52,543 bases of DNA, from positions 1-52,543 of IMG/VR virus record IMGVR_UViG_3300033145_003423; one strand, 5' to 3'. The notes below the pieces were generated by a model, which was not told the DNA's origin, made no database searches, and worked only from the letters and a program-made list of their open reading frames with translations. The position numbers were made by a program, and so were the translations under genes. The stretch comes from a virus (lineage: Duplodnaviria > Caudoviricetes). The first letter of the stretch is position 1, and each line of letters begins with the position of its first letter. Positions 1 to 41,115 of the stretch are shown here, piece by piece.

Positions 1-861
1 ATGAGTAAAGATGCTTTTTATTTCTCACACGATGCAAATGCAAGAAACGACCCCAAGATATTAGCCATGCGAAGTATTTGTGGCTCTGAAGGTTACGGCT
101 GGTACTGGATGCTAATTGAACTTATGCGAGAGCAAGAGAATTATTGCCTATCTATAGCTGGCAAATACGATTACAATGCGATTGCCATGCAATTGCAATG
201 CGAACCGGATGCTATCAAAACTTTTATTACAGATTGCATCAATGAATTTCATTTATACGAAACAGACGGGCAATTATTTTGGAGTGATTCTCTGTTAAGA
301 CGTATGGGGAAGATGAATAAACTTCGTGATAAACGAAAATTAGCGGCTCACAAAGGTGCGGAAGCACGGTGGTCTGATGCCAAACGCATGCCAAACGCAT
401 GCCAAACGGATGCGATTGATATGCCAAAACATGCCAAAGAAAAGAAAACTAAAGAAAAGAAAATAGAAACTAAATCAAACAAAATAACAGATGAACACAT
501 CTCTATCTTCAACCATTGGAACCAACAAGAAATAATAATACATAAAAACCTAACCGAAGAAATCAAAAAAGCAATAGAAGCTGCTCTCAAAAAACATTCA
601 CTTGAAGAGATTCTCCAATCAATCGCAAACTTCTCAACCGCTTACAAAAATGAAAAATACGAAATGTGTAGTTACAAATGGGGTTTGGTTACGTTCTTGA
701 AACAAAAGAACGCCCTGCCCCATTTTCTTGATGACGGAGAAAAGTGGCTGAGTTATTTGGATTGGCAGAAGAAGAAGCCCGCACAACAACCCAAAAAGCA
801 GAAGTGTGAGACAACCGGGCAGGAGTACGAGCTGTTCGATGCGAGGGGAGAAAGGGGTTGA
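1..861 (+). CDS. DUF4373/Lin1244-like phage replication initiator
   Basis: N-terminal YFSHDxNARNDPKI...GxEGYGWYWMLIE motif, internal 11-bp repeats and Lys-rich linker typical of phage initiators. Confidence 0.75.
   Translation: MSKDAFYFSHDANARNDPKILAMRSICGSEGYGWYWMLIELMREQENYCLSIAGKYDYNAIAMQLQCEPDAIKTFITDCINEFHLYETDGQLFWSDSLLRRMGKMNKLRDKRKLAAHKGAEARWSDAKRMPNACQTDAIDMPKHAKEKKTKEKKIETKSNKITDEHISIFNHWNQQEIIIHKNLTEEIKKAIEAALKKHSLEEILQSIANFSTAYKNEKYEMCSYKWGLVTFLKQKNALPHFLDDGEKWLSYLDWQKKKPAQQPKKQKCETTGQEYELFDARGERG
377..438 (+). repeat. Iteron-like 11-bp repeats (ATGCCAAACGC), putative replication origin
   Basis: ATGCCAAACGC at 377 and 388, ATGCCAAACGG at 399, degenerate copies at 410, 421, 431, followed by an A-rich tract. 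Confidence 0.6.
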
Positions 862-2138
862 TAGAGATAAGACAACAAGCAATGTTTAACGAACTAATAA
901 TAGATTCCTTCGCTGGTGGTGGCGGTGCAAGCACTGGCATTCATCTAGCCATAGGCCGGTCGGTTGACATCGCAATCAATCACGACCCGGCGGCAATAGC
1001 CATGCATAAAGTTAATCATCCAAATACAAAACATTTTTGCGAATCAGTTTGGGATGTAGACCCGCGAGAAGTTACGCAAGGGCAACCAGTGGGATTGATG
1101 TGGCTATCCCCGGACTGCTCTCATTTTTCAAAGGCAAAAGGTGGCAAGCCGGTAAAAAAGAATATCAGAGGGCTTGCATGGATAGCAGTAAAATGGGCAG
1201 CTACAGTCAGACCCAGATTAATCATATTGGAGAATGTAGAAGAATTTAAAACATGGGGGCCGCTTACAAAAGAGGGTTATCCGGACATAGACCAAAAAGG
1301 CCGCACATTCGATTCTTTTGTAAATGCACTTAAACGACATGGATATCAAGTAGATTACAGAGAACTTCGGGCTTGCGATTATGGAGCCCCTACGAGCCGC
1401 AAAAGGTTTTTTATGGTTGCTAGATGTGATGGCCAGCCTATTGCGTGGCCAGAAACCACCCACGGCGACCCTAAAAGCCTAGAAGTTATAAGCGGAAAGC
1501 TGAAACCGTGGAGGACAGCAGCAGAAATCATAGATTGGTCAATACCCTGTCCATCAATCTTTGAGAGGAAAAAACCTTTGGTCGAAAACACCATGAAGCG
1601 AATAGCGCGAGGAATACAAAAGTTTGTAATAGACACCCCGAATCCGTTTATTGTTCCGCAAACTAACCAGTCAAACAAAAGCGACAATTCCCAACTGGTT
1701 GCTGCATTCCTAACTCAATACCACAGTTACGAGGGGGACGGAGCCAGAGGACAAACGCTGGATAGACCGCTTTTAACACTAGATACATCTAACAGATATG
1801 CATTAGTTCAAGCCTTCTTAATCGCTTATTACGGGACATCCAGAGGCAGTAAATGTAATGAACCGCTACAAACAGTGGTGTCAAAAGACCGATTCGGCTT
1901 AATTACGATTCACAATCAAGACTACAGAATAGTGGATATTGGCATGAGAATGCTGGCACCGCGCGAGCTGTTTAACGCACAAGGATTTCCTGTCGATTAC
2001 ATAATTGATGTAGATTCTAAAGGCAAACGGTATCCAAAGACCGCGCAGGTGGCCAGATGTGGCAATGCAGTACCACCTCCCTTTGCTGAAGCATTAGTTA
2101 GGGCTAATCTGCCAGAACTTTGTAGTGTAGCGGCGTAA
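858..2138 (+). CDS. DNA (cytosine-5) methyltransferase
   Basis: Motifs FAGGGG (I), SPDC (IV), ENV (VI), RKR (VIII), GNAV (X). Confidence 0.93.
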   Translation: MIEIRQQAMFNELIIDSFAGGGGASTGIHLAIGRSVDIAINHDPAAIAMHKVNHPNTKHFCESVWDVDPREVTQGQPVGLMWLSPDCSHFSKAKGGKPVKKNIRGLAWIAVKWAATVRPRLIILENVEEFKTWGPLTKEGYPDIDQKGRTFDSFVNALKRHGYQVDYRELRACDYGAPTSRKRFFMVARCDGQPIAWPETTHGDPKSLEVISGKLKPWRTAAEIIDWSIPCPSIFERKKPLVENTMKRIARGIQKFVIDTPNPFIVPQTNQSNKSDNSQLVAAFLTQYHSYEGDGARGQTLDRPLLTLDTSNRYALVQAFLIAYYGTSRGSKCNEPLQTVVSKDRFGLITIHNQDYRIVDIGMRMLAPRELFNAQGFPVDYIIDVDSKGKRYPKTAQVARCGNAVPPPFAEALVRANLPELCSVAA

Positions 2139-10702: not shown

Positions 10703-11329
10703 TTATCTCCTTTCATCAAGTCGTCTTAACATGGTGAAAAACAACCAATACGGAGGTTCGCCTTCCCCTAACCTGGGCTTCCAATATTCGGGGTTTTTTA
10801 TGATTCCCTCTTTAACCAAGTAGTCAATAGATTCCTCTCCCAGTTTTTTCATCCAAATTTCCAAATTATTTCCCTCCAATCTTTTGTACAGCTCCACCCA
10901 TGGGAAATTCTTCCCGGGGCAAGCAGTAGCCATCACATCTTTGTGACCAATCACCGGGATACCCGGATACCTGTTCCGGATATCTTTGATGAGCCAAATC
11001 ACAGAACTCAACTGCGCTTCAGTGGGCTTTCCCTCCATGAAGTTACCTATCAGGCAGATACCCAGGCCATCAGTGTTAGCCTCATGCTGTGCATCTTGCC
11101 AGGCATGAGCGCCCCTAGCCCATTCCGGCCTACCCTTATAGATGGTGCCATCCGGATAAATTACATAGTGATATCCCAGCCCACTCCATCCCTTGCCTTG
11201 ATGCCAACGGTGCATGTCCTGGATGGTAGTAGTTATAGAGCTGGCAGAATGATGTAGCACAATCCGTTCTGTCTTATACCGTTTCCTAAAAATCCCTTTA
11301 AATTGGATATTGGTCTTTATTGTTTTCAT
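10703..11329 (-). CDS. Endolysin, N-acetylmuramoyl-L-alanine amidase (Amidase_2/PGRP-like)
   Basis: IVLHHSA, GWSGLGYHY, GAH, GHKD...TACPG Zn ligands; start chosen at MKTIK. Confidence 0.92.
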   Translation of the reverse strand: MKTIKTNIQFKGIFRKRYKTERIVLHHSASSITTTIQDMHRWHQGKGWSGLGYHYVIYPDGTIYKGRPEWARGAHAWQDAQHEANTDGLGICLIGNFMEGKPTEAQLSSVIWLIKDIRNRYPGIPVIGHKDVMATACPGKNFPWVELYKRLEGNNLEIWMKKLGEESIDYLVKEGIIKNPEYWKPRLGEGEPPYWLFFTMLRRLDERR

Positions 11330-11816
11330 TACTTGTCTCCCCTCCTTCCTCAACTATCTGCTCCAGTTTTCTCTTACTAAACTTCTTCAACCACCGGAAC
11401 TCTTCAACCCCGGCTTCCAGGAAGTTCTCACAGGTACTTTCCAACTCCACAAAGAAAAATATTCCATATATAACGCTGGAAGCTACATAGGTGTATTCAT
11501 ACGGAAACTTCTCCATCTGGCAGGCAAACACGCACATAATGAAATAGGCAGGTATCTTAATCTTCGCTCCCTGAAACATCTTGTCCGATTGTATGTGTCC
11601 CTCTTTAATGGCCTTTACGAGCCCGCCATGTTGAGCAGATTCGGATACAAGCCTTGACAACAAGTCACAAGCTACCGCAATCCACAGAGCATAGAATGCA
11701 GGACCCGGGCCTATCAAGTAAGTAATCGCACCCACAAAAAAGCCCCCCAGCCACGCTAGAGGGTTAGTGAGGGCGTTCATGCCTATCTTCCCGAAGGAAG
11801 CTAAAAATTCGGTCAT
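11298..11816 (-). CDS. Holin (toxin-secretion/phage lysis type)
   Basis: Several TM segments, S.KMFxG..K and ExxSxxENxxxAG motifs; adjacent to endolysin. Confidence 0.75.
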   Translation of the reverse strand: MTEFLASFGKIGMNALTNPLAWLGGFFVGAITYLIGPGPAFYALWIAVACDLLSRLVSESAQHGGLVKAIKEGHIQSDKMFQGAKIKIPAYFIMCVFACQMEKFPYEYTYVASSVIYGIFFFVELESTCENFLEAGVEEFRWLKKFSKRKLEQIVEEGGETSNENNKDQYPI

Positions 11817-12017
11817 TGTCAAACCTCCCGTCTCCAATAAAAAAGAGCCTCCCGGCTCACTTCTTCACGTGAATCTTGCTCATATCAATAGGCACCACTC
11901 CTTGAAATTGCGCATAAAAAAAAAGCGGGGTTTTGCGCCCGCTTGATTACTTTTTTAGTTCTGTTCACTTCATTTAATATAATAAGAGTAGACTAACTAG
12001 TTTAAGGAAGTTGTATA

Positions 12018-24212: not shown

Positions 24213-25571
24213 TCACTTCACTTTCGTTTTAGACTTGCCGCCAAAAGTCAGATTCATTATTTCTGCTTGTACCGTGGTTTGGAGTTTGACCGTCAAATTG
24301 TAAAATTTATTTGTAGACACCTTGATTACTTTAGTAGCCCCCGGAGATGCAGAAGGAATAGTTATCGAATAAGCAGAAGAATATAGTCCATCATCCTCTT
24401 TAAGATAAAGACTCAATGTGCCACCACCTGTGACATTGCCGAGTTCTACTGCTATGTTTTTGACTTTTTTCTTTATGCCCGGCTTGCCTAAATCCAATGC
24501 GTCAGAAATCCAACGATAAGTTATTGCTGCTGAATCATCCTTTGAACCAACATCAAGCAAGTAAATCTTTTTATCGCTTGCCGAGCAGTATAACTCATCA
24601 CCATCCAAACAAAAGTCATAAATAGAAAAAGCATAAACATGTTTAGTCCACCTACCGGTCAGTGTGTCATACTCAAAGACAAGGTTATTAGTAATTGAGC
24701 CCGTACCTGCAATTGCCAATAAATAAGAACTTTTGTAAGCTACCGCCACTGCATTATCTAAGTAATCAATATTTACCAAGTCAGTAAATTCGCCTAAATC
24801 AAAAGCCACTGGATGGACTTTCCCTCCGCCATAGAAATAAACTCCATCCTGCGATAAGAAGTAAATGCTCTCGTTGATATTGACTACACTTCTGCCTGAT
24901 ACAGTACCTACCGGACCTATTGGAACCTTAGTAAAATTACTAGCGCTTGAGCCTAAATATTTATAAGCTGAGAACTCGTTTATGATAACCAATTGATTCA
25001 AAAGCGGTATAATCTGCTTTATGCCATCACCTGTATTTTCTGAAATTTGAACATAATGATCTGAAATAGTACCAGCATTGCCAACGTCTGAATACCGTAA
25101 ATAAGTAGGCTCTGTAGTGTCATTAGTCCATACCCGAGCCTGCCAACTAGCAATCACATCAAATGTAATAGGAGGTCCGCTAATAGCCGCTAATGTTGTA
25201 CCATCGTAAGACAGCATATCTGTGCCATTGCTCATATAAGATTTGTTCAAAAAGGTATCATTGCAAAATACCGCATTGCCACAATCAGTCTTTATTGCCG
25301 GTGTGACCCATGCAGTAAAAGCCAAATTGCCCACCCATAAGTTAGTCCCTTCAGCCCCAAGAAAATACTTTACTCCTGTTTTAGTCGTGAAAAGAAAAAG
25401 CGATTCGATAACTGCTGATGTAGCCGCTATCTGAACCGCTGAGCCATTTCTAGGCTTCAAGGAATCTTCTCTGACTGTGAAGTTTTGCATATCCTCCGCC
25501 TGTGTCCTCTGCCTGTTTGCTAGAGCAGAATAACCTGTAAATCCCGGCAATTGGTAAACAAGTGTTCTCAC
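24213..25571 (-). CDS. Tail nozzle / DNA stabilisation protein (P22 gp10 or T7 tube B-like)
   Basis: Beta-propeller-like sequence (GTVSGRSV, IYFLSQDGVY, YDxxTGRW); GTG start after AGGAGG. Confidence 0.7.
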   Translation of the reverse strand: MRTLVYQLPGFTGYSALANRQRTQAEDMQNFTVREDSLKPRNGSAVQIAATSAVIESLFLFTTKTGVKYFLGAEGTNLWVGNLAFTAWVTPAIKTDCGNAVFCNDTFLNKSYMSNGTDMLSYDGTTLAAISGPPITFDVIASWQARVWTNDTTEPTYLRYSDVGNAGTISDHYVQISENTGDGIKQIIPLLNQLVIINEFSAYKYLGSSASNFTKVPIGPVGTVSGRSVVNINESIYFLSQDGVYFYGGGKVHPVAFDLGEFTDLVNIDYLDNAVAVAYKSSYLLAIAGTGSITNNLVFEYDTLTGRWTKHVYAFSIYDFCLDGDELYCSASDKKIYLLDVGSKDDSAAITYRWISDALDLGKPGIKKKVKNIAVELGNVTGGGTLSLYLKEDDGLYSSAYSITIPSASPGATKVIKVSTNKFYNLTVKLQTTVQAEIMNLTFGGKSKTKVK

Positions 25572-25596
25572 TTTCTCACCTCCTGTTATCTCTTCT

Positions 25597-26361
25597 TTAC
25601 CATATGCCTGTGCCTCGACCGTAACCCGGTTCTCTTTGCACATAGTTAGGTTTTTCAAGCCGTATCAACCTATTAATTGCAATTTGTTTGTGATAGTAAA
25701 ATTCTTTCATTAGCCGTAATCCATCAACACTTTCCTCATCATCATAAAGCTTGTAGCGTGCGGCCAAGTAGTAAGCCATGCACCTATGCAATAATGTATG
25801 AGCATTTGGCGTGTCACTTGCCAATGTCATATCTGATGGTAGTGCTCTGTAATAAGCTGTCCACTCACCTGTTGTACCCATTCGTATCTGCCCAAGTCTA
25901 ATGTCAAATGCACCAGAATAATAATCCTGTCCATTACTAACTATGTATTGAGTATCTTCTGCGGGAGCATCCGTAAATGCGGCACAGGTAACTTCTAAGC
26001 CAGCACCGTCATAATCGGTAATAGCCTTGACTTCACTTCCTATGGCTATCACCATGCCGTTATAAGCATCATCAACTGTACTACCATTAGTTTTAAGGAT
26101 TATTGAAGTTGTGGTGCAATCAGCATCGCAAACACCATAAACCTTATAAGCAAAGATTTTAAGGATACTTAAAAAGTCACTAGGCAAGTCGGTATAACCG
26201 TATTCGTAAGTTTGCGTTATATTGAAACTCTTGTTGTACCACGCATTCTCACCGAACTCATCACATTGGCATTGATTAGCCCAAAGTATTGCATTGGCAT
26301 CAGTCATTTCATCTTCTTCCAGAAACGATTCAGCAAGAGCTTTGATTTCGTCAAGCGTCAT
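25597..26361 (-). CDS. Head-tail adaptor (P22 gp4 or tube A-like)
   Basis: MTLxEI start, LPSDF, Y.ALP..., YLAARYK helices. Confidence 0.7.
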   Translation of the reverse strand: MTLDEIKALAESFLEEDEMTDANAILWANQCQCDEFGENAWYNKSFNITQTYEYGYTDLPSDFLSILKIFAYKVYGVCDADCTTTSIILKTNGSTVDDAYNGMVIAIGSEVKAITDYDGAGLEVTCAAFTDAPAEDTQYIVSNGQDYYSGAFDIRLGQIRMGTTGEWTAYYRALPSDMTLASDTPNAHTLLHRCMAYYLAARYKLYDDEESVDGLRLMKEFYYHKQIAINRLIRLEKPNYVQREPGYGRGTGIW

Positions 26362-34245: not shown

Positions 34246-34521
34246 CTACCATCCAAACATGCTATTCTTCCTTCCCTGCATCTTCTTGTAAACTTCTTCA
34301 AACTGTACGTTGGTTCTAATCCTCTCCTTGTCAACTTCGCTTGTGCCTTTTGGGAATACTAGCTTTGAGTCGATTGATGACTCTGGGTGCCGGGACATGC
34401 AGAAATAACGGCAATTATGTACAATCAAACCACCGCAAATACTGAAGTTATGATAGCCGCCTACCGTTAAATCGTAAGTATCTGCTTTTCCTGCATATCT
34501 AACAGTTTTAACTTTAGCCAT
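34246..34521 (-). CDS. terL: Split intein C-half (36 aa) plus terminase large subunit C-extein
   Basis: Block F TYDLTV..YHNF, block G LIVHN, then +1 Cys in CRYFCMSR. Confidence 0.9.
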   Translation of the reverse strand: MAKVKTVRYAGKADTYDLTVGGYHNFSICGGLIVHNCRYFCMSRHPESSIDSKLVFPKGTSEVDKERIRTNVQFEEVYKKMQGRKNSMFGW

Positions 34522-35155
34522 AAGCCATTACCTTTCTCGGCCTCTGCTTTTTGCCCTTTCGGTTTAAAGCACTAGATATTGCCCCACATTCCTTAGAACA
34601 CGTTTTTGTCTTTCCGTATTTATTGGTTACAAATTCCTCCCCGCAAACAGCACATGTTCTTGTTTCATTATCAACTCCACTTTTGCGCCTAGCTTTTGAC
34701 TTACAATTACTAGAGCAAAACTTAGAACCCCAAGACGCAAACACACTTATTTCGTATTCTTTTCCACAACATCCGCATGTTTTAGTTACCATTTTATCCA
34801 TATACAGACCAAGGGAACCTGGCCAATTCTTTTTAGCAAACTCCCTTGCTTCTTCGCTTTTATGCCATTCTGCAGCTAGTTTCCTTCCCTCCACCCCTAC
34901 TTCGAGCAAGAGCTTTATTCTTTCGGGATTTTTGCCGTGTTTGCTTAAATGCTCACTACCGGGTAACGATTCGTAATTGCTTAACTCGTTGTTATCTTTG
35001 TTTTCGTCTTTATGGTGAATATGATGGCCTTCGGGAATGGGACCCATTTCTTTTTCCCACTTATACCTGTGTAATCTGTGTCCATCGCGACTACTGTAAT
35101 ATCCACTAGCACACCTGTAAAACTTTGTATCATCATAAACAATAATCTGTGACAC
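34514..35155 (-). CDS. Free-standing HNH homing endonuclease
   Basis: LHR..WE...GPIPEG..IHHKDENKDNN...N; C-terminal CxxCG...CSxxC repeats. Confidence 0.9.
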   Translation of the reverse strand: MSQIIVYDDTKFYRCASGYYSSRDGHRLHRYKWEKEMGPIPEGHHIHHKDENKDNNELSNYESLPGSEHLSKHGKNPERIKLLLEVGVEGRKLAAEWHKSEEAREFAKKNWPGSLGLYMDKMVTKTCGCCGKEYEISVFASWGSKFCSSNCKSKARRKSGVDNETRTCAVCGEEFVTNKYGKTKTCSKECGAISSALNRKGKKQRPRKVMAYG

Positions 35156-36630
35156 TAAGCTCCCCCCTTTAAACCAATATCAACAATGTCATCCTCAGAA
35201 GTAAGGCGTTGAATTTCCTTCCACCCATTTTGAGTTAGCACTTTGTGGTCTGCCGTTCCTTTGAATTTTCTTCCATCTTCCAATTCAACCTCATATATAT
35301 CTGTATCTGGGCGGGCAAGATGAATATTAAAAAACTCCCCAATAACAGGAGAGTTTTTTTGTTGGTCGTAGCAATGCAAATAACCTCGCTGTCCAACTAA
35401 ATCTTTAATTGAAATACCGCCTTCGGTTGTATCTACAATCGTATCACCGGTTAAACAGCTTTCATTTATGTGCGACACAATGTGCGGCTTATCTGCTGCA
35501 TCCTCTGGATTGTGTTCGTCATGCTGTAACATTGGCAAGTATTTAATAAAGTTTTTGCAAGTGCTGAATATCTGCATCCTTGCGGTTTTACTTACATTGC
35601 CTTCTTCATCTTTTATCTCGAAGGGTTCTAAGTACTCCCTCATTACTCGCCAACCTTGAATACGCTTGTGATTAGCTTTGACAAGCCCTTTAAGCCCTGC
35701 CCGACTCATTATCTCAATGCCAGAGGCGCCCGTTTCTTGGCGTCTGCTCCAAAGGTCGGGGGAAGCGGTTGTATAAGAAATATATTCATCATCAGGCGTC
35801 ATATCAACTATCTTCTCTGCCGCTTTGGTGAGGTTTAGATTGGGTTCGTGTAACTCCCTATAAGCGAATACCTGCCCATTGTTAGCCACCGCCCACCATA
35901 TGCAAGCTGTCATATCTAGGCCGTAATCAAGCGATCTGATTCGCTTCCAGTAGGGGGGTATTTCAAAGGGAGCGACTACGTGTATTTCCGGCTTGAATTC
36001 TCTGAAGAACATTCCCGCAAATGTATTCCAATTACCGTTTAAGTAAGCCTCTCGTAAATCTTCGGGCAAACTTTTTAGTTCGTTTAAGTATTCTGGATTG
36101 CGTTTCATAACCACCGTATTGTCGTAAATTTTGGCAGGAATAAAAACATAATCATCTGGGTTTTCACCTTCTCTGAACTCTCTGTCTATAAAAATTCTCT
36201 TAAACCACTCATGTCCCACTCCCCCCGGATTGGCTGTATAATATCTTCTCGGCCTAAAGGGAACTTTAATAGTCTCAGAAGTACGACAGCATAGTCTAAT
36301 CTGGTTCCACTGAAACTCCGTAAAGTTGGTAGCTTCCTCAAAGCAAACACAGTCATAACTTTGTCCCTGATATTGAATTGTATCTGCATCAGTATCGCAG
36401 TATCCTAATTTAAGCCTTGCGTTTCTCGGAAACATGAAAGATTTCATATCAGCATTGTATTTCGCAACACCACTTAATTCTGCCAATAATGGAATTAAAT
36501 GGTTTTCTTTTAATTCAGGTAATGTACGTCTTAGTAACAATATTTGAATGCCGGGGTACTTGAGGCACAGCATCACACATTTACGCCTTACAGCCCATGA
36601 TTTTCCACCGTCAATATCTGGCACCACCAT
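35155..36630 (-). CDS. terL: Terminase large subunit main fragment ending in a 100-aa split intein N-half (35457-35158)
   Basis: GGKSW, Walker B FEEA, TANPGG.GH, nuclease DYG; then CLTGDT (block A) and GTADH (block B). Confidence 0.9.
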   Translation of the reverse strand: MVVPDIDGGKSWAVRRKCVMLCLKYPGIQILLLRRTLPELKENHLIPLLAELSGVAKYNADMKSFMFPRNARLKLGYCDTDADTIQYQGQSYDCVCFEEATNFTEFQWNQIRLCCRTSETIKVPFRPRRYYTANPGGVGHEWFKRIFIDREFREGENPDDYVFIPAKIYDNTVVMKRNPEYLNELKSLPEDLREAYLNGNWNTFAGMFFREFKPEIHVVAPFEIPPYWKRIRSLDYGLDMTACIWWAVANNGQVFAYRELHEPNLNLTKAAEKIVDMTPDDEYISYTTASPDLWSRRQETGASGIEIMSRAGLKGLVKANHKRIQGWRVMREYLEPFEIKDEEGNVSKTARMQIFSTCKNFIKYLPMLQHDEHNPEDAADKPHIVSHINESCLTGDTIVDTTEGGISIKDLVGQRGYLHCYDQQKNSPVIGEFFNIHLARPDTDIYEVELEDGRKFKGTADHKVLTQNGWKEIQRLTSEDDIVDIGLKGGA

Positions 36631-36733
36631 AAGCTATATGCGCTTCCCTTGCTAAGAAAAATTCTTTTTGTTTTTCATTGGGAGTACCTTTTAAGACTAA
36701 TTGTTTGGACTTTTTTTTACTTGCGGTTGCCAT
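36611..36733 (-). CDS. terL: Terminase large subunit N-terminal 40 aa, out of frame with the rest
   Basis: MATASKKKSKQLVLKGTPNEKQKEFFLAREAHIAYGGARY*; P..KQ..F motif and YGGAR half of Walker A; RBS AAGGGGGTG. Confidence 0.8.
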   Translation of the reverse strand: MATASKKKSKQLVLKGTPNEKQKEFFLAREAHIAYGGARY

Positions 36734-36786
36734 GAATCATATCACCCCCTTTTCGGACATAAAAAAGAGCCTTTATTCAAGACTCT

Positions 36787-37386
36787 TTATATAGAAAAAT
36801 AATATTGATACAATGCGCTTAATCTTGGCAGGCAAGTATAGTAAAGCCGTGGCTTAAAATCTTTTATAGTCGAACAATTACAAGTTTTTATATGCTCAAC
36901 CTGAAATATCGCAAACAACTCAATATCATCTATGCCAATTACATCAAAACGTTGTCCAGCAAACTTGAAAACATCGTTATCCGCATCACCAATAAAACCA
37001 AGCTGTAAAATAGAACCATTGGGAAAAATAAGCCTGTCGGAACTAGATGTGTGTGTGCAAATATCACCCAATTCCTCGATTAAACGCGATCTATTTTCCA
37101 TGTGTCCTATTACGCCTTTCTTGATCAACAGTAATATATTTAGTCCCGGATATTTCAACGCCATAAGGATTAGCTTTCTTCTTAAAGCCCATGATTTGCC
37201 TGTACCCGCATCACCGCTAAAACAAACAGGGCTCCCTTTCGCAAGGAAAAATTGCTCTTGATCGTGCGTAGGCTTACCCTTTAAGACCAACTCTTTCTTT
37301 GTTTTCTTTTTCCTCTCAATACATGCATGAAGATATTCGGCTTGACTTGCTGTAAATGGAGCCATCTCATCAAACCACATAATCAT
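36787..37386 (-). CDS. Truncated terminase ATPase-domain paralog
   Basis: LVLKGKP..Q..FFLA, GDAGTGKSWALRRK, KYPGLNILLL, FPNGS.L.LG, F.PR.YYT collinear with TerL N-half. Confidence 0.8.
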   Translation of the reverse strand: MIMWFDEMAPFTASQAEYLHACIERKKKTKKELVLKGKPTHDQEQFFLAKGSPVCFSGDAGTGKSWALRRKLILMALKYPGLNILLLIKKGVIGHMENRSRLIEELGDICTHTSSSDRLIFPNGSILQLGFIGDADNDVFKFAGQRFDVIGIDDIELFAIFQVEHIKTCNCSTIKDFKPRLYYTCLPRLSALYQYYFSI

Positions 37387-37790: not shown

Positions 37791-37864
37791 TGGTTAGAGA
37801 GGCAGGACTCGAACCTGCATTGACGGAATCAAAATCCGTTGTCCTGCCTTTGAACGACTCTCCA
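37791..37864 (-). tRNA. tRNA-Gln(TTG)
   Basis: Cloverleaf: acceptor TGGAGAG/CTCTCTA, anticodon arm ACGGA-TTTTGAT-TCCGT, GCAGG-TTCGAGT-CCTGC, encoded CCA. Confidence 0.93.
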
Positions 37865-39821: not shown

Positions 39822-39960
39822 TGTAATTCTTCCAGAAAATAGTGACCACTCCCCCACTTACTCTTGAAGTCGGGGCTTCTCGGTTCATCGAGTTCGTAAC
39901 CTGCACTCTCACCGAAGGCACGATCCATGCCTGTATTATTTTTATGACTACTAAGCAGCT
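39822..39960 (-). ncRNA. Putative TnpB omega/reRNA (boundaries approximate); guide from flank TATTTTCTGGAAGAATTACA
   Basis: Position between tnpB 3' end and right end; structured right end. Confidence 0.55.
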
Positions 39961-41045
39961 ATTTGTGCTAATCCTCTGTTTAATATATTGATAGCTGCGT
40001 TTACGTCCCTGTCAATTTCCAAGCCACAATACGGACATTTATGAGTTCTAACTGACAAAGCTTTTTTAACTATTTCACCGCAACCGCTACATATCTGGCT
40101 GGTGTACTTAGGGTCTACTGCAATAACTCTCTTGCCTGGCGCTTGTTTAGCCTTTGCTTCTAAGATATTGAAGAAGATTCCCCAGCCTGCATCAGATATG
40201 GATTTAGCTAAGCAGTGATTTTTAACCATATTGTTTATTTTTAAATCTTCACGAACAATAGTGTCATAGTTAGTTAATAAGTGACTAGCTACCTTATAAG
40301 CATTGTCTTTACGTTTATTGGAGATATGCTCATGAGTTTTGGCAAGTATAGTAACTGCCTTTTTACGTCTGTTAGAACCTTTTCTCTTGCGGCTGACTGA
40401 TTGACTTTGTTTCTTTAATTTAGATTCAGCTTTACGGTAGTTCTTGGGGTTAGGAATTAATTCGCCATCAGATGTAATTACGAATTCCTTAATACCCATA
40501 TCTATACCAGTATCCTGGTATGTTAGAGGAATCACCTTTTGTTCTACCTCACAGGAAAAACAGACATAATACCTTCCGTTCTTTCTGACAATGGTACAGG
40601 TTTTAATATTACCCTCTACTGCTCGGTGCAATTTTACTTTCACATTACCGATTTTGGATAGCTGTAGGTGCTTGCCCGAAAGTGCAAAACCACTCTGAGG
40701 GTAAGTAAAACTGTTGTACCTTTTATAGCTCTGAAACCTTGGAAAACCAGCTTTTTCACCTTGCTTAAGCCTACGAAAGAAATTTTGATATGCTCTGTCT
40801 AATCGTTTTAATACGTCTTGTAGGACTTGTGACTGTACGGTTTTATATTCCGGCAATACATTCTTGATTTTTGGTAATTCGTTTTGTTGGTTATAATAAC
40901 TAATGTTAATTCCACAATGCTTATATAGGTAGATACGGTGTTCTAAAGCACAATTGTATAGACGCTGGCATAGTGTAACTGTCTGATCTATAACTTCTCT
41001 CTGCTTTTTAGTTGGATATATTCGGTACTTATAGGTTTTTATCAT
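39951..41045 (-). CDS. tnpB: TnpB RNA-guided endonuclease
   Basis: YKYRIYPT, GFPRF, RuvC GIDMG / EDL / DRDVNAA, CxxC..CxxC zinc finger; ATG at 41045 after AGGAGG. Confidence 0.95.
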   Translation of the reverse strand: MIKTYKYRIYPTKKQREVIDQTVTLCQRLYNCALEHRIYLYKHCGINISYYNQQNELPKIKNVLPEYKTVQSQVLQDVLKRLDRAYQNFFRRLKQGEKAGFPRFQSYKRYNSFTYPQSGFALSGKHLQLSKIGNVKVKLHRAVEGNIKTCTIVRKNGRYYVCFSCEVEQKVIPLTYQDTGIDMGIKEFVITSDGELIPNPKNYRKAESKLKKQSQSVSRKRKGSNRRKKAVTILAKTHEHISNKRKDNAYKVASHLLTNYDTIVREDLKINNMVKNHCLAKSISDAGWGIFFNILEAKAKQAPGKRVIAVDPKYTSQICSGCGEIVKKALSVRTHKCPYCGLEIDRDVNAAINILNRGLAQIAA

Positions 41046-41064
41046 CTTTTCACCTCCTATGTAT

Positions 41065-41115
41065 ATCATATAATAGTTACATAACCTTGTCAACATTATT
41101 TATATATAGTATTAT
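41065..41115. promoter_or_regulatory. Divergent sigmaA promoters with overlapping -35 boxes
   Basis: Minus TTGACA-17-TATGAT; plus TTGTCA-17-TATTAT. Confidence 0.6.

Follow-up and report, generated by a model that had tools for sequence, protein, structure and literature searches.

The gene for the large terminase subunit (terL) of an integrated, temperate Clostridia-type phage raises the question of how a functional protein could be made from a gene that is broken inside its Walker A motif. The phage is IMG/VR provirus record IMGVR_UViG_3300033145_003423, with a length of 52,543 nucleotides (nt) and a CheckV completeness of 69%; this whole stretch of DNA is referred to here as the window. In the window terL, four bases, TGAC, introduce an in-frame stop and a change of reading frame between the two halves of Walker A. 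We consider that this TGAC is probably a programmed short translational bypass, or stop-hop, in a functional terL. A stop-hop is likely because many relatives carry tiny stop-led inserts at the same spot and because the gene is under selection.

An interrupted Walker A motif in the window terL

The window terL is encoded on the minus strand, as are all features described here unless noted, and coordinates given without a locus label are positions in the window. Its ATG lies 8 nt downstream of a Shine-Dalgarno-like (SD-like) stretch, GGGGGTGA, read in the sequence at 36742..36749. The first open reading frame (ORF1, 36614..36733) consists of 40 sense codons from the ATG (36733..36731) to the TAT codon of Tyr40, and its translation, MATASKKKSKQLVLKGTPNEKQKEFFLAREAHIAYGGARY, contains a conserved P..KQ..FF stretch and ends, at ...IAYGGARY, in the first half of Walker A. 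ORF1 is 69% identical to residues 2-43 of the TerL of locus L003, the closest uninterrupted relative (71% amino acid identity). Immediately after the TAT (36614..36616), which we propose as the take-off codon, comes the four-base gap TGAC (36610..36613), an in-frame UGA (36613..36611) followed by C. Coding resumes one base after the TGA, in the +1 frame, with GGT GGA AAA TCA TGG (36609..36595). The second reading frame (ORF2), counted from the resume codon GGT (36609..36607), spans 35158..36609 and encodes GGKSW, Walker B, the nuclease domain and the N-terminal half of a Hint (intein) domain. As listed by the ORF program, ORF2 has 491 codons (35155..36630), is +1 relative to ORF1, and reads ...D I D G G K S W across the junction. 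The description given in the first-pass annotation, of a 40-residue TerL N-terminus halted at TGA with GGKSW in the +1 frame, was verified on the sequence: the window terL has no contiguous GxxxxGK[ST] in one frame, as TGAC separates Tyr40 from GGKS.

Apart from this break the gene appears to be an ordinary terminase. ORF2 matches the ATPase domain profile Terminase_6N (PF03237; E 9e-8, 32.5 bits against a cut-off of 22) and the terminase large subunit families phrog_979 (E 5e-37) and phrog_2, and its Walker B motif (CVCFEE) is unbroken. No second terL was found elsewhere in the 52,543-base record except a 199-codon fragment just upstream, and the other long structural ORFs of the record appear intact.

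The extent of the insert was determined by comparison with its closest relatives. L003 reads GGARYGGKSW in one frame, and a DNA alignment of the six members of the window clade places the extra bases in a single column directly after the Tyr codon: four in the window, five in L004 (TGAAT), three in L098 (TAA), and none in L003, L005 or L006. Tyr is therefore the codon preceding the Walker A insert in L004 and L098 as well. The alignment bears out the earlier count of four extra nucleotides, and of the ways proposed for removing them it supports deletion of TGAC, as skipping the whole insert gives the spacing GGARY-GGKS seen in L003. A search for TAT-TGA-C among relatives, suggested in the same annotation, returned stop-led inserts of 5 and 3 nt at the same codon, and the exact insert was not shared.

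The exact 34-mer across the junction had 0 matches among other viral contigs, the terL region had no blastn match among 50,697 phage records, and a search of the 40-residue ORF1 product against a 5.8-billion-protein collection (candidates of 22-70 residues) returned only the query, the similar fragment of L004 evidently lying outside that collection. In cultured phages, tblastn with the L003 TerL matched 245 records, all at less than 60% identity, and none of the rows inspected showed such a gap. Matches to Arthrobacter phages that begin exactly at the Walker A Lys were considered as possible breaks and rejected: phage Martha reads YGGAAGGGKSK in one frame.

Stop-led inserts among terL relatives

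Relatives were collected in four scans: viral contigs (6 loci), viral contigs (best 80 of 356), metagenome contigs (best 80 of 178), and species-representative genomes (71 loci, nearly all metagenome-assembled genomes of Bacillota/Clostridia). The resulting 237 terL sequences, including the window, were compared by tblastn with 162 intact TerL references; 52 of the 237 were flagged because the alignment fell into two or more pieces or an internal stop appeared, and all 52 were inspected. Duplicates, inteins and stops located 5' of the terL start were removed before counting. The in-frame stops of L049, L105, L112, L117, L144, L152, L172 and L234 were dropped on the last ground, and L066, L067 and L126 were dropped as mis-anchored. 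The Walker A count excludes loci whose N-terminal region was unmatched (e.g. L044, L050, L051, L056, L079-L088).

This survey identified 22 short inserts led by a stop, 3-17 nt in length and spread over 19 gene lineages. Seventeen are in Walker A (the window, L004, L098, L069, L016, the L178 group, L182, L203, L052, L010, L012/L089, L027, L034, L045, L060, L104 and L219), four are in Walker B at CVCF|EE (L004, L098, L005 and L006/L007/L015), and one, in L010, is at a third motif, RRTxPE|L (RRTMPE|LRENH). Of the 237 sequences, 198 had a Walker A motif that could be identified, and in 173 of these it was canonical, in a single frame and of invariant spacing; the remaining 25 comprise 22 interrupted and three mis-anchored loci. 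That 17 of 22 interruptions fall within the eight Walker A codons of a gene of ~480 codons (P 1e-26, a value that, like those below, is generous) is not what random decay would give, and chance is excluded at the level of the family. Only one ordinary indel was seen in the 237 sequences, a 1-nt change at the NPGG motif of L151 (2853..2875 of that locus). The L151 terL is 97-100% identical to that of L062, and the indel is probably an error or a recent mutation.

The inserts share a common anatomy. In all 22, including the 16 that shift the frame, the last conserved codon is followed at once by a stop that opens the insert (TGA in 13, TAG in seven and TAA in two), and eight of the 13 led by TGA open with TGAC. 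Their lengths leave a remainder of 0 on division by three in six cases, 1 in five and 2 in 11; no single frameshift rule fits. The six in-frame inserts include those of L052 and L027, each of 6 nt, and that of L034, which has 12 nt and two stops (GGT TGA CTT TAG GGT); the insert of L060 measures 17 nt. In every one of the 22 events, skipping the whole insert regains the canonical motif. In 11 of 22 events the last three skipped bases, here called the landing codon, encode the same amino acid as the take-off codon, where 1.2 such cases would be expected (P 4e-9), as in GGT-TAA-GGT (L027), CGA-TAG-CGT (L052), GCA-TA-GCG and GAA-T-GAA. Seven of the 11 non-synonymous events match the take-off at codon positions 2-3 (P 1e-4). 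The window is one of these seven, its proposed landing codon GAC (the last three bases of the gap) matching the Tyr codon at positions 2-3. Such a match, as far as sequence can tell, is the mark that translational bypassing would leave, with a peptidyl-tRNA detaching from its codon and pairing again with a second one.

Two other decoding schemes were rejected. An alternative genetic code does not account for the inserts: most of them change the reading frame, each of the three stops is used among them, and several long ORFs of the window terminate at TGA. Skipping only the U of UGA, or quadruplet decoding, fits the window, L005 and the third-site insert of L010 only, and fails for the Walker A insert of L004, for L060, L012 and L045, and for the in-frame inserts.

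Interrupted copies also persist under selection. L178, L180 and L184 share an identical GCA-TA-GCG break, and over the 423 codons downstream of it the proportion of synonymous differences (pS) is 0.20-0.56 and dN/dS is 0.033-0.037. A dN/dS of about 0.03 downstream of a shared break indicates that selection on the downstream frame continued after insertion in this group, which argues against decay. Likewise, three separate contig records, L006, L007 and L015, carry one and the same insert. In the window, the proportion of nonsynonymous differences (pN) in ORF1 is 0.17-0.20 against a pS of 0.78-0.89 (compared with L003 and L004), and ORF2 has a pN of 0.18 and a pS of 0.91 (compared with L003); these values point to past constraint and do not date the insert. 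At least nine changes of interruption state are required on a tree of 153 representatives. Five of the six lineages of the window clade carry at least one insert.

We infer each translational step of the proposed hop, and its efficiency, from these features. The ribosome would decode the 40 codons of ORF1 and come to hold peptidyl-tRNA-Tyr on UAU in the P site with the poorly terminating UGA-C in the A site, where termination would be slow. The anticodon would then unpair, the mRNA slide by 4 nt, and the tRNA re-pair on GAC through positions 2 and 3, with a mismatch at position 1. Decoding would restart at GGU GGA AAA, giving a P-loop with the spacing of uninterrupted relatives, and the G-rich, SD-like codons of the P-loop may assist the hop. 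The product would end in the N-terminal half of an intein and would need trans-splicing to a separately encoded C-terminal piece.

HNH genes, the split intein and the rest of the locus

Many interrupted terL genes are preceded by a gene with an HNH endonuclease motif. Among clusters with at least 1300 nt of upstream sequence, an ORF with this motif was found 5' of terL in seven of 13 with an interrupted Walker A against four of 102 with an uninterrupted one (P 1e-5, or 3e-4 when the L178 group is counted once). Of those four, L005 and L006 are broken at Walker B, L008 is interrupted by an intein, and in L026 the HNH ORF is 1.4 kb away. When any interruption is considered, the counts are 8/14 against 1/99 (P 5e-8). 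The distance from the end of the HNH gene to the Walker A Lys codon is 91-202 nt in eight clusters, all of them interrupted. Seven of nine ORFs tested scored above the Pfam cut-off for HNH. L003, the sole fully uninterrupted member of the window clade, has no HNH motif upstream.

The L178 and L184 loci show how such a gene might travel. Over ~700 nt that end at the insert (1783..2483 of L178), and that contain the HNH gene along with the initial 32 codons of terL, the two are 96-100% identical, against 73-86% just after the insert and 45-67% upstream of the block. The block looks like a mobile or recently exchanged cassette that ends at the Walker A gap, and a mosaic boundary at this position is what joint movement of the gap and the endonuclease gene would be expected to give. 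By analogy with a known homing system, discussed below, these short gaps most likely arise and spread as immunity inserts that would spoil the target of a homing HNH endonuclease whose gene lies immediately 5' of terL.

The region directly 5' of the window terL is different. It holds a truncated second terL of 199 codons (36787..37386), 39% identical to TerL residues 5-135, in which Walker A (GDAGTGKSW) and Walker B are intact and which ends abruptly at the YYT..P C-motif. This fragment, directly 5' of the real terL start, looks like the remnant of a replaced terL. A terminator-like hairpin of 10 pairs followed by a T-run (36764..36788) overlaps the stop of the fragment and lies 30 nt before the terL ATG. 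The presence of fragment and hairpin here indicates that the endonuclease, if it was ever there, has been lost.

The 3' end of terL is divided in a second way. ORF2 ends in a Hint/intein N-half (CLTGDT...), matched by the Intein_splicing profile at residues 406-483 with 23.8 bits, below the Pfam cut-off of 35.8. A free-standing HNH_3 ORF follows (34514..35155; PF13392, E 3e-11; phrog_15471), its start overlapping the ORF2 stop by one base. Next is a 91-codon ORF (34246..34521) that encodes the intein C-half (...GGLIVHN) and the TerL C-extein (CRYFCMSRHPE...); its residues 3-36 match positions 122-155 of Intein_splicing with 24.8 bits, again below the cut-off of 35.8, and the C-extein aligns with residues 437-490 of L003. 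The same order of Hint N-half, HNH_3 ORF, and Hint C-half with C-extein recurs in the diverged L162 and L163, and its retention there argues that the arrangement works. The earlier proposal of a three-piece gene was thus upheld as an arrangement, while the accompanying idea that recoding serves to limit TerL found no support in our data. In both the window (34246..35480) and L162 (3400..4666 of that locus) the split intein and HNH_3 gene occupy three overlapping frames at INES|C. By its sequence organization this would be a "fractured gene" of the Dassa 2009 type; in that account (PMC2677866), such genes likewise have a host gene in two ORFs with Hint halves and an endonuclease ORF between them.

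Other large insertions occur in the family. L008, L031, L162 and L163 have an in-frame insertion of ~330 codons (CFTP...HN) between Walker A and Walker B (e.g. 1064..3757 of L162), probably a contiguous intein. In L069, ~1 kb is inserted in frame at reference residues 166/167, and L058 has two large insertions.

Elsewhere in the window, an IS605/TnpB-type ORF with OrfB_IS605 and Cas12f1-like TNB domains (39951..41096) lies ~3 kb 5' of terL, and a tRNA-Gln gene with the ordinary, non-suppressor anticodon TTG (37791..37864) lies between the early region and the packaging genes. Two same-strand ORF pairs overlap by 55-65 nt: 24213..25658 and 25597..26361, a virion protein with an amidase-like part, and 10703..11353 and 11298..11837, a holin/amidase pair. 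A C-5 cytosine DNA methylase (858..2138) and, at the window end, a phage integrase (51863..52543) are encoded on the plus strand. No resistance genes were found among 30 ORFs scanned.

Alternative explanations, known systems and implications

Several observations weigh against a stop-hop in the window or against the homing scenario attached to it. For this contig the case is one of sequence comparison, and the survey as a whole consists of metagenome-assembly data in which insert events are phylogenetically clustered, so that our statistics overstate their independence. The landing codon GAC is non-cognate, with a mismatch for tRNA-Tyr at position 1; L005 and L006, with UUC as take-off, have poor landing matches, and the Walker A insert of L098 and the third-site insert of L010 match at codon positions 1-2 only. 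No significant local RNA structure was predicted at any of the 22 sites, with minimum free energy z-scores between -1.5 and +0.8, none below -1.6 and the window at -1.54; local hairpins were seen only in L060, L005 and L006. We found no near-identical relative with the exact window insert, so that the evidence for selection after insertion is that of the L178 group rather than of the window copy. No HNH gene lies directly 5' of the window terL, where the fragment and hairpin are found instead, and such rearrangement means that the provirus could be defective. HNH genes beside terminase genes can be packaging components rather than homing enzymes. The sharp step in identity at the insert was seen in one of seven pairs profiled (L178 and L184) and was absent in the other six.

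The alternative that survives best, although we regard it as unlikely, is that the insert inactivates terL, in which case the provirus would be defective or its terL dead, and the four bases would be a scar, for instance of endonuclease resistance or repair. The in-frame stop and frameshift do lie inside a catalytic motif, next to the rearrangement marked by the terL fragment at 36787..37386 and the TnpB gene at 39951..41096, in a record of 69% completeness; the lack of the exact insert in any relative and the non-cognate landing codon also favour this explanation. However, apart from the break, ~430 extein codons of the two ORFs remain open and have a pN far below pS, and the other structural ORFs are long and open. 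Family-wide, the single ordinary frameshift of L151 compares with 22 stop-led inserts confined to three motifs, a shared insert persists in the L178 group under a dN/dS of 0.03, and five of six clade lineages are interrupted. Recoding, decay and sequence error had been left side by side in the first-pass annotation; the comparative data favour recoding and make decay less likely for this provirus.

Less probable still is a programmed +1 frameshift at UAU UGA C, in which the U would be occluded and Asp-tRNA would read GAC, adding an Asp to the P-loop (Y-D-GGKS). The model for such an event is the programmed +1 frameshift of prfB (RF2) at CUU UGA C, where UGA-C is a weak stop. As in prfB, the window places UGA-C in the A site with an SD-like sequence upstream (GGTGGTG, 6 nt 5' of TAT), the change of frame is +1, the product would still fit [AG]xxxxGK[ST], and three of the eight TGAC-led inserts have lengths that leave a remainder of 1. 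Unlike prfB, the window has no +1 slippery P-site codon: UAU U would become AUU, which is read by another tRNA, and this poor re-pairing had already been noted as an argument against simple slippage. That argument is strengthened by the family, since a +1 shift could not restore the frame for the other five TGAC-led inserts, nor for the sister inserts at the same codon (5 nt in L004 and 3 nt in L098), nor, overall, for 17 of the 22 events. In addition, P-loop spacing is canonical in all 173 uninterrupted loci, so that the residue gained by this invariant loop would be unprecedented.

We consider it highly improbable that the gap is dealt with at another level, by RNA processing or editing or by production of two separate polypeptides with ORF2 started at an internal ATG. 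An ATG does open the listed ORF2 at 36630, but nothing points directly to its use: it has no SD sequence before it, and ORF2 alone would lack the conserved motif of the N-terminus as well as the first half of the P-loop, both of which are under purifying selection. Inserts of 3-5 nt have no known splicing route, and the take-off and landing matches indicate tRNA re-pairing. Least credible is a sequencing or assembly error that added four bases absent from the real genome: although the sequence is a single metagenome-derived contig, with no second contig carrying the 34-mer and the 40-residue product on one contig only, a 4-nt non-homopolymer insertion would be atypical, independent contigs carry inserts at the same codon, and an identical insert recurs in L006, L007 and L015.

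A stop-hop thus remains our preferred explanation for the window. Natural translational bypassing is, to our knowledge, documented for few genes: T4 gene 60 and its homologues, the terL candidates of phage phiHau3, and the yeast mitochondrial byps. The nearest precedent is terL of the Streptomyces phage phiHau3, which has two 10-nt gaps led by UUA, one at KGWG|KD and one before Walker B, with the junction peptide detected in Escherichia coli (Antonov et al. 2023, PMC10732093). The candidate was proposed in 2013, two prophages have it as well, and three of 100 ter genes were affected (PMC10732093). In that source, as here, short frame-disrupting blocks fall at the Gly|Lys of Walker A and before Walker B of the same gene, the A-site codon that opens the gap is slow to decode, relatives free of the insert have the two flanks side by side, and conserved junctions argue against added residues. 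The differences are that the phiHau3 blocks are 10 nt long and begin with a rare sense codon, UUA, tied to Streptomyces tRNA biology, whereas ours are 3-17 nt long and the window begins with the stop TGA over 4 nt; that three of 100 ter genes compare with 19 lineages from phages and prophages of Bacillota; and that an upstream HNH link is found here.

The link to homing is best illustrated by T4 gene 60, where, according to the account cited, a 50-nt bypass gap is part of the MobA homing cassette and blocks cleavage by MobA (bioRxiv 10.1101/2022.08.31.505936). In the sources cited, gene 60 resembles the present inserts in having a stop directly 3' of the take-off and matched take-off and landing codons, often Gly (PMC5009743; bioRxiv 10.1101/2024.12.09.627546), in having its insert in a highly conserved coding stretch together with a free-standing homing endonuclease, and in that some copies have lost the endonuclease and kept the gap. 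Gene 60 as described there is a topoisomerase gene, and its 50-nt gap comes with an internal SD, a signal in the nascent peptide and a stem-loop at take-off; the inserts in terL span 3-17 nt and have no significant predicted structure, and the window has a near-cognate landing and neither a take-off stem-loop nor an adjoining upstream homing endonuclease. The simplest comparison is with synthetic stop-hops, for which a 2016 review states that no natural in-frame occurrences were known (PMC5009743). L052 (CGA TAG CGT), L027 (GGT TAA GGT) and L203 have the form of these synthetic sites and the window is a 4-nt variant of it; the constructs described were engineered and hopped at low level, whereas the inserts here are natural and in an essential gene. 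No description of stop-led micro-gaps in terL was found in our searches of the literature on bypassing, terminases and coding gaps, supplements being outside the search.

Taken together, the data allow a broader proposal, which we advance tentatively and, with all its parts joined, hold to be slightly on the doubtful side. Stop-led gaps of 3-17 nt would constitute a widespread natural class of bypass sites in terL of Bacillota phages. They would originate as inserts that confer immunity to homing HNH endonucleases directed at the DNA encoding Walker A and Walker B, and would be crossed by intrinsic stop-hopping that needs pairing at positions 2-3 only, with the G-rich, SD-like codons of the P-loop favouring such sites. 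The TGAC of the window would be a functional member of this class whose endonuclease has been lost, and TerL would be made by a hop followed by intein trans-splicing.

In annotation, such terL genes are split into two ORFs or labelled pseudogenes, and the proviruses that carry them are scored as defective. The 22 graded short gaps, with all three stops and with both cognate and near-cognate landings, offer a natural series in which the requirements of a hopping ribosome could be examined. Should the HNH link hold, the logic of T4 MobA would extend to terminase genes, and a coding gap would be a means of endonuclease immunity in a sequence too conserved to vary.

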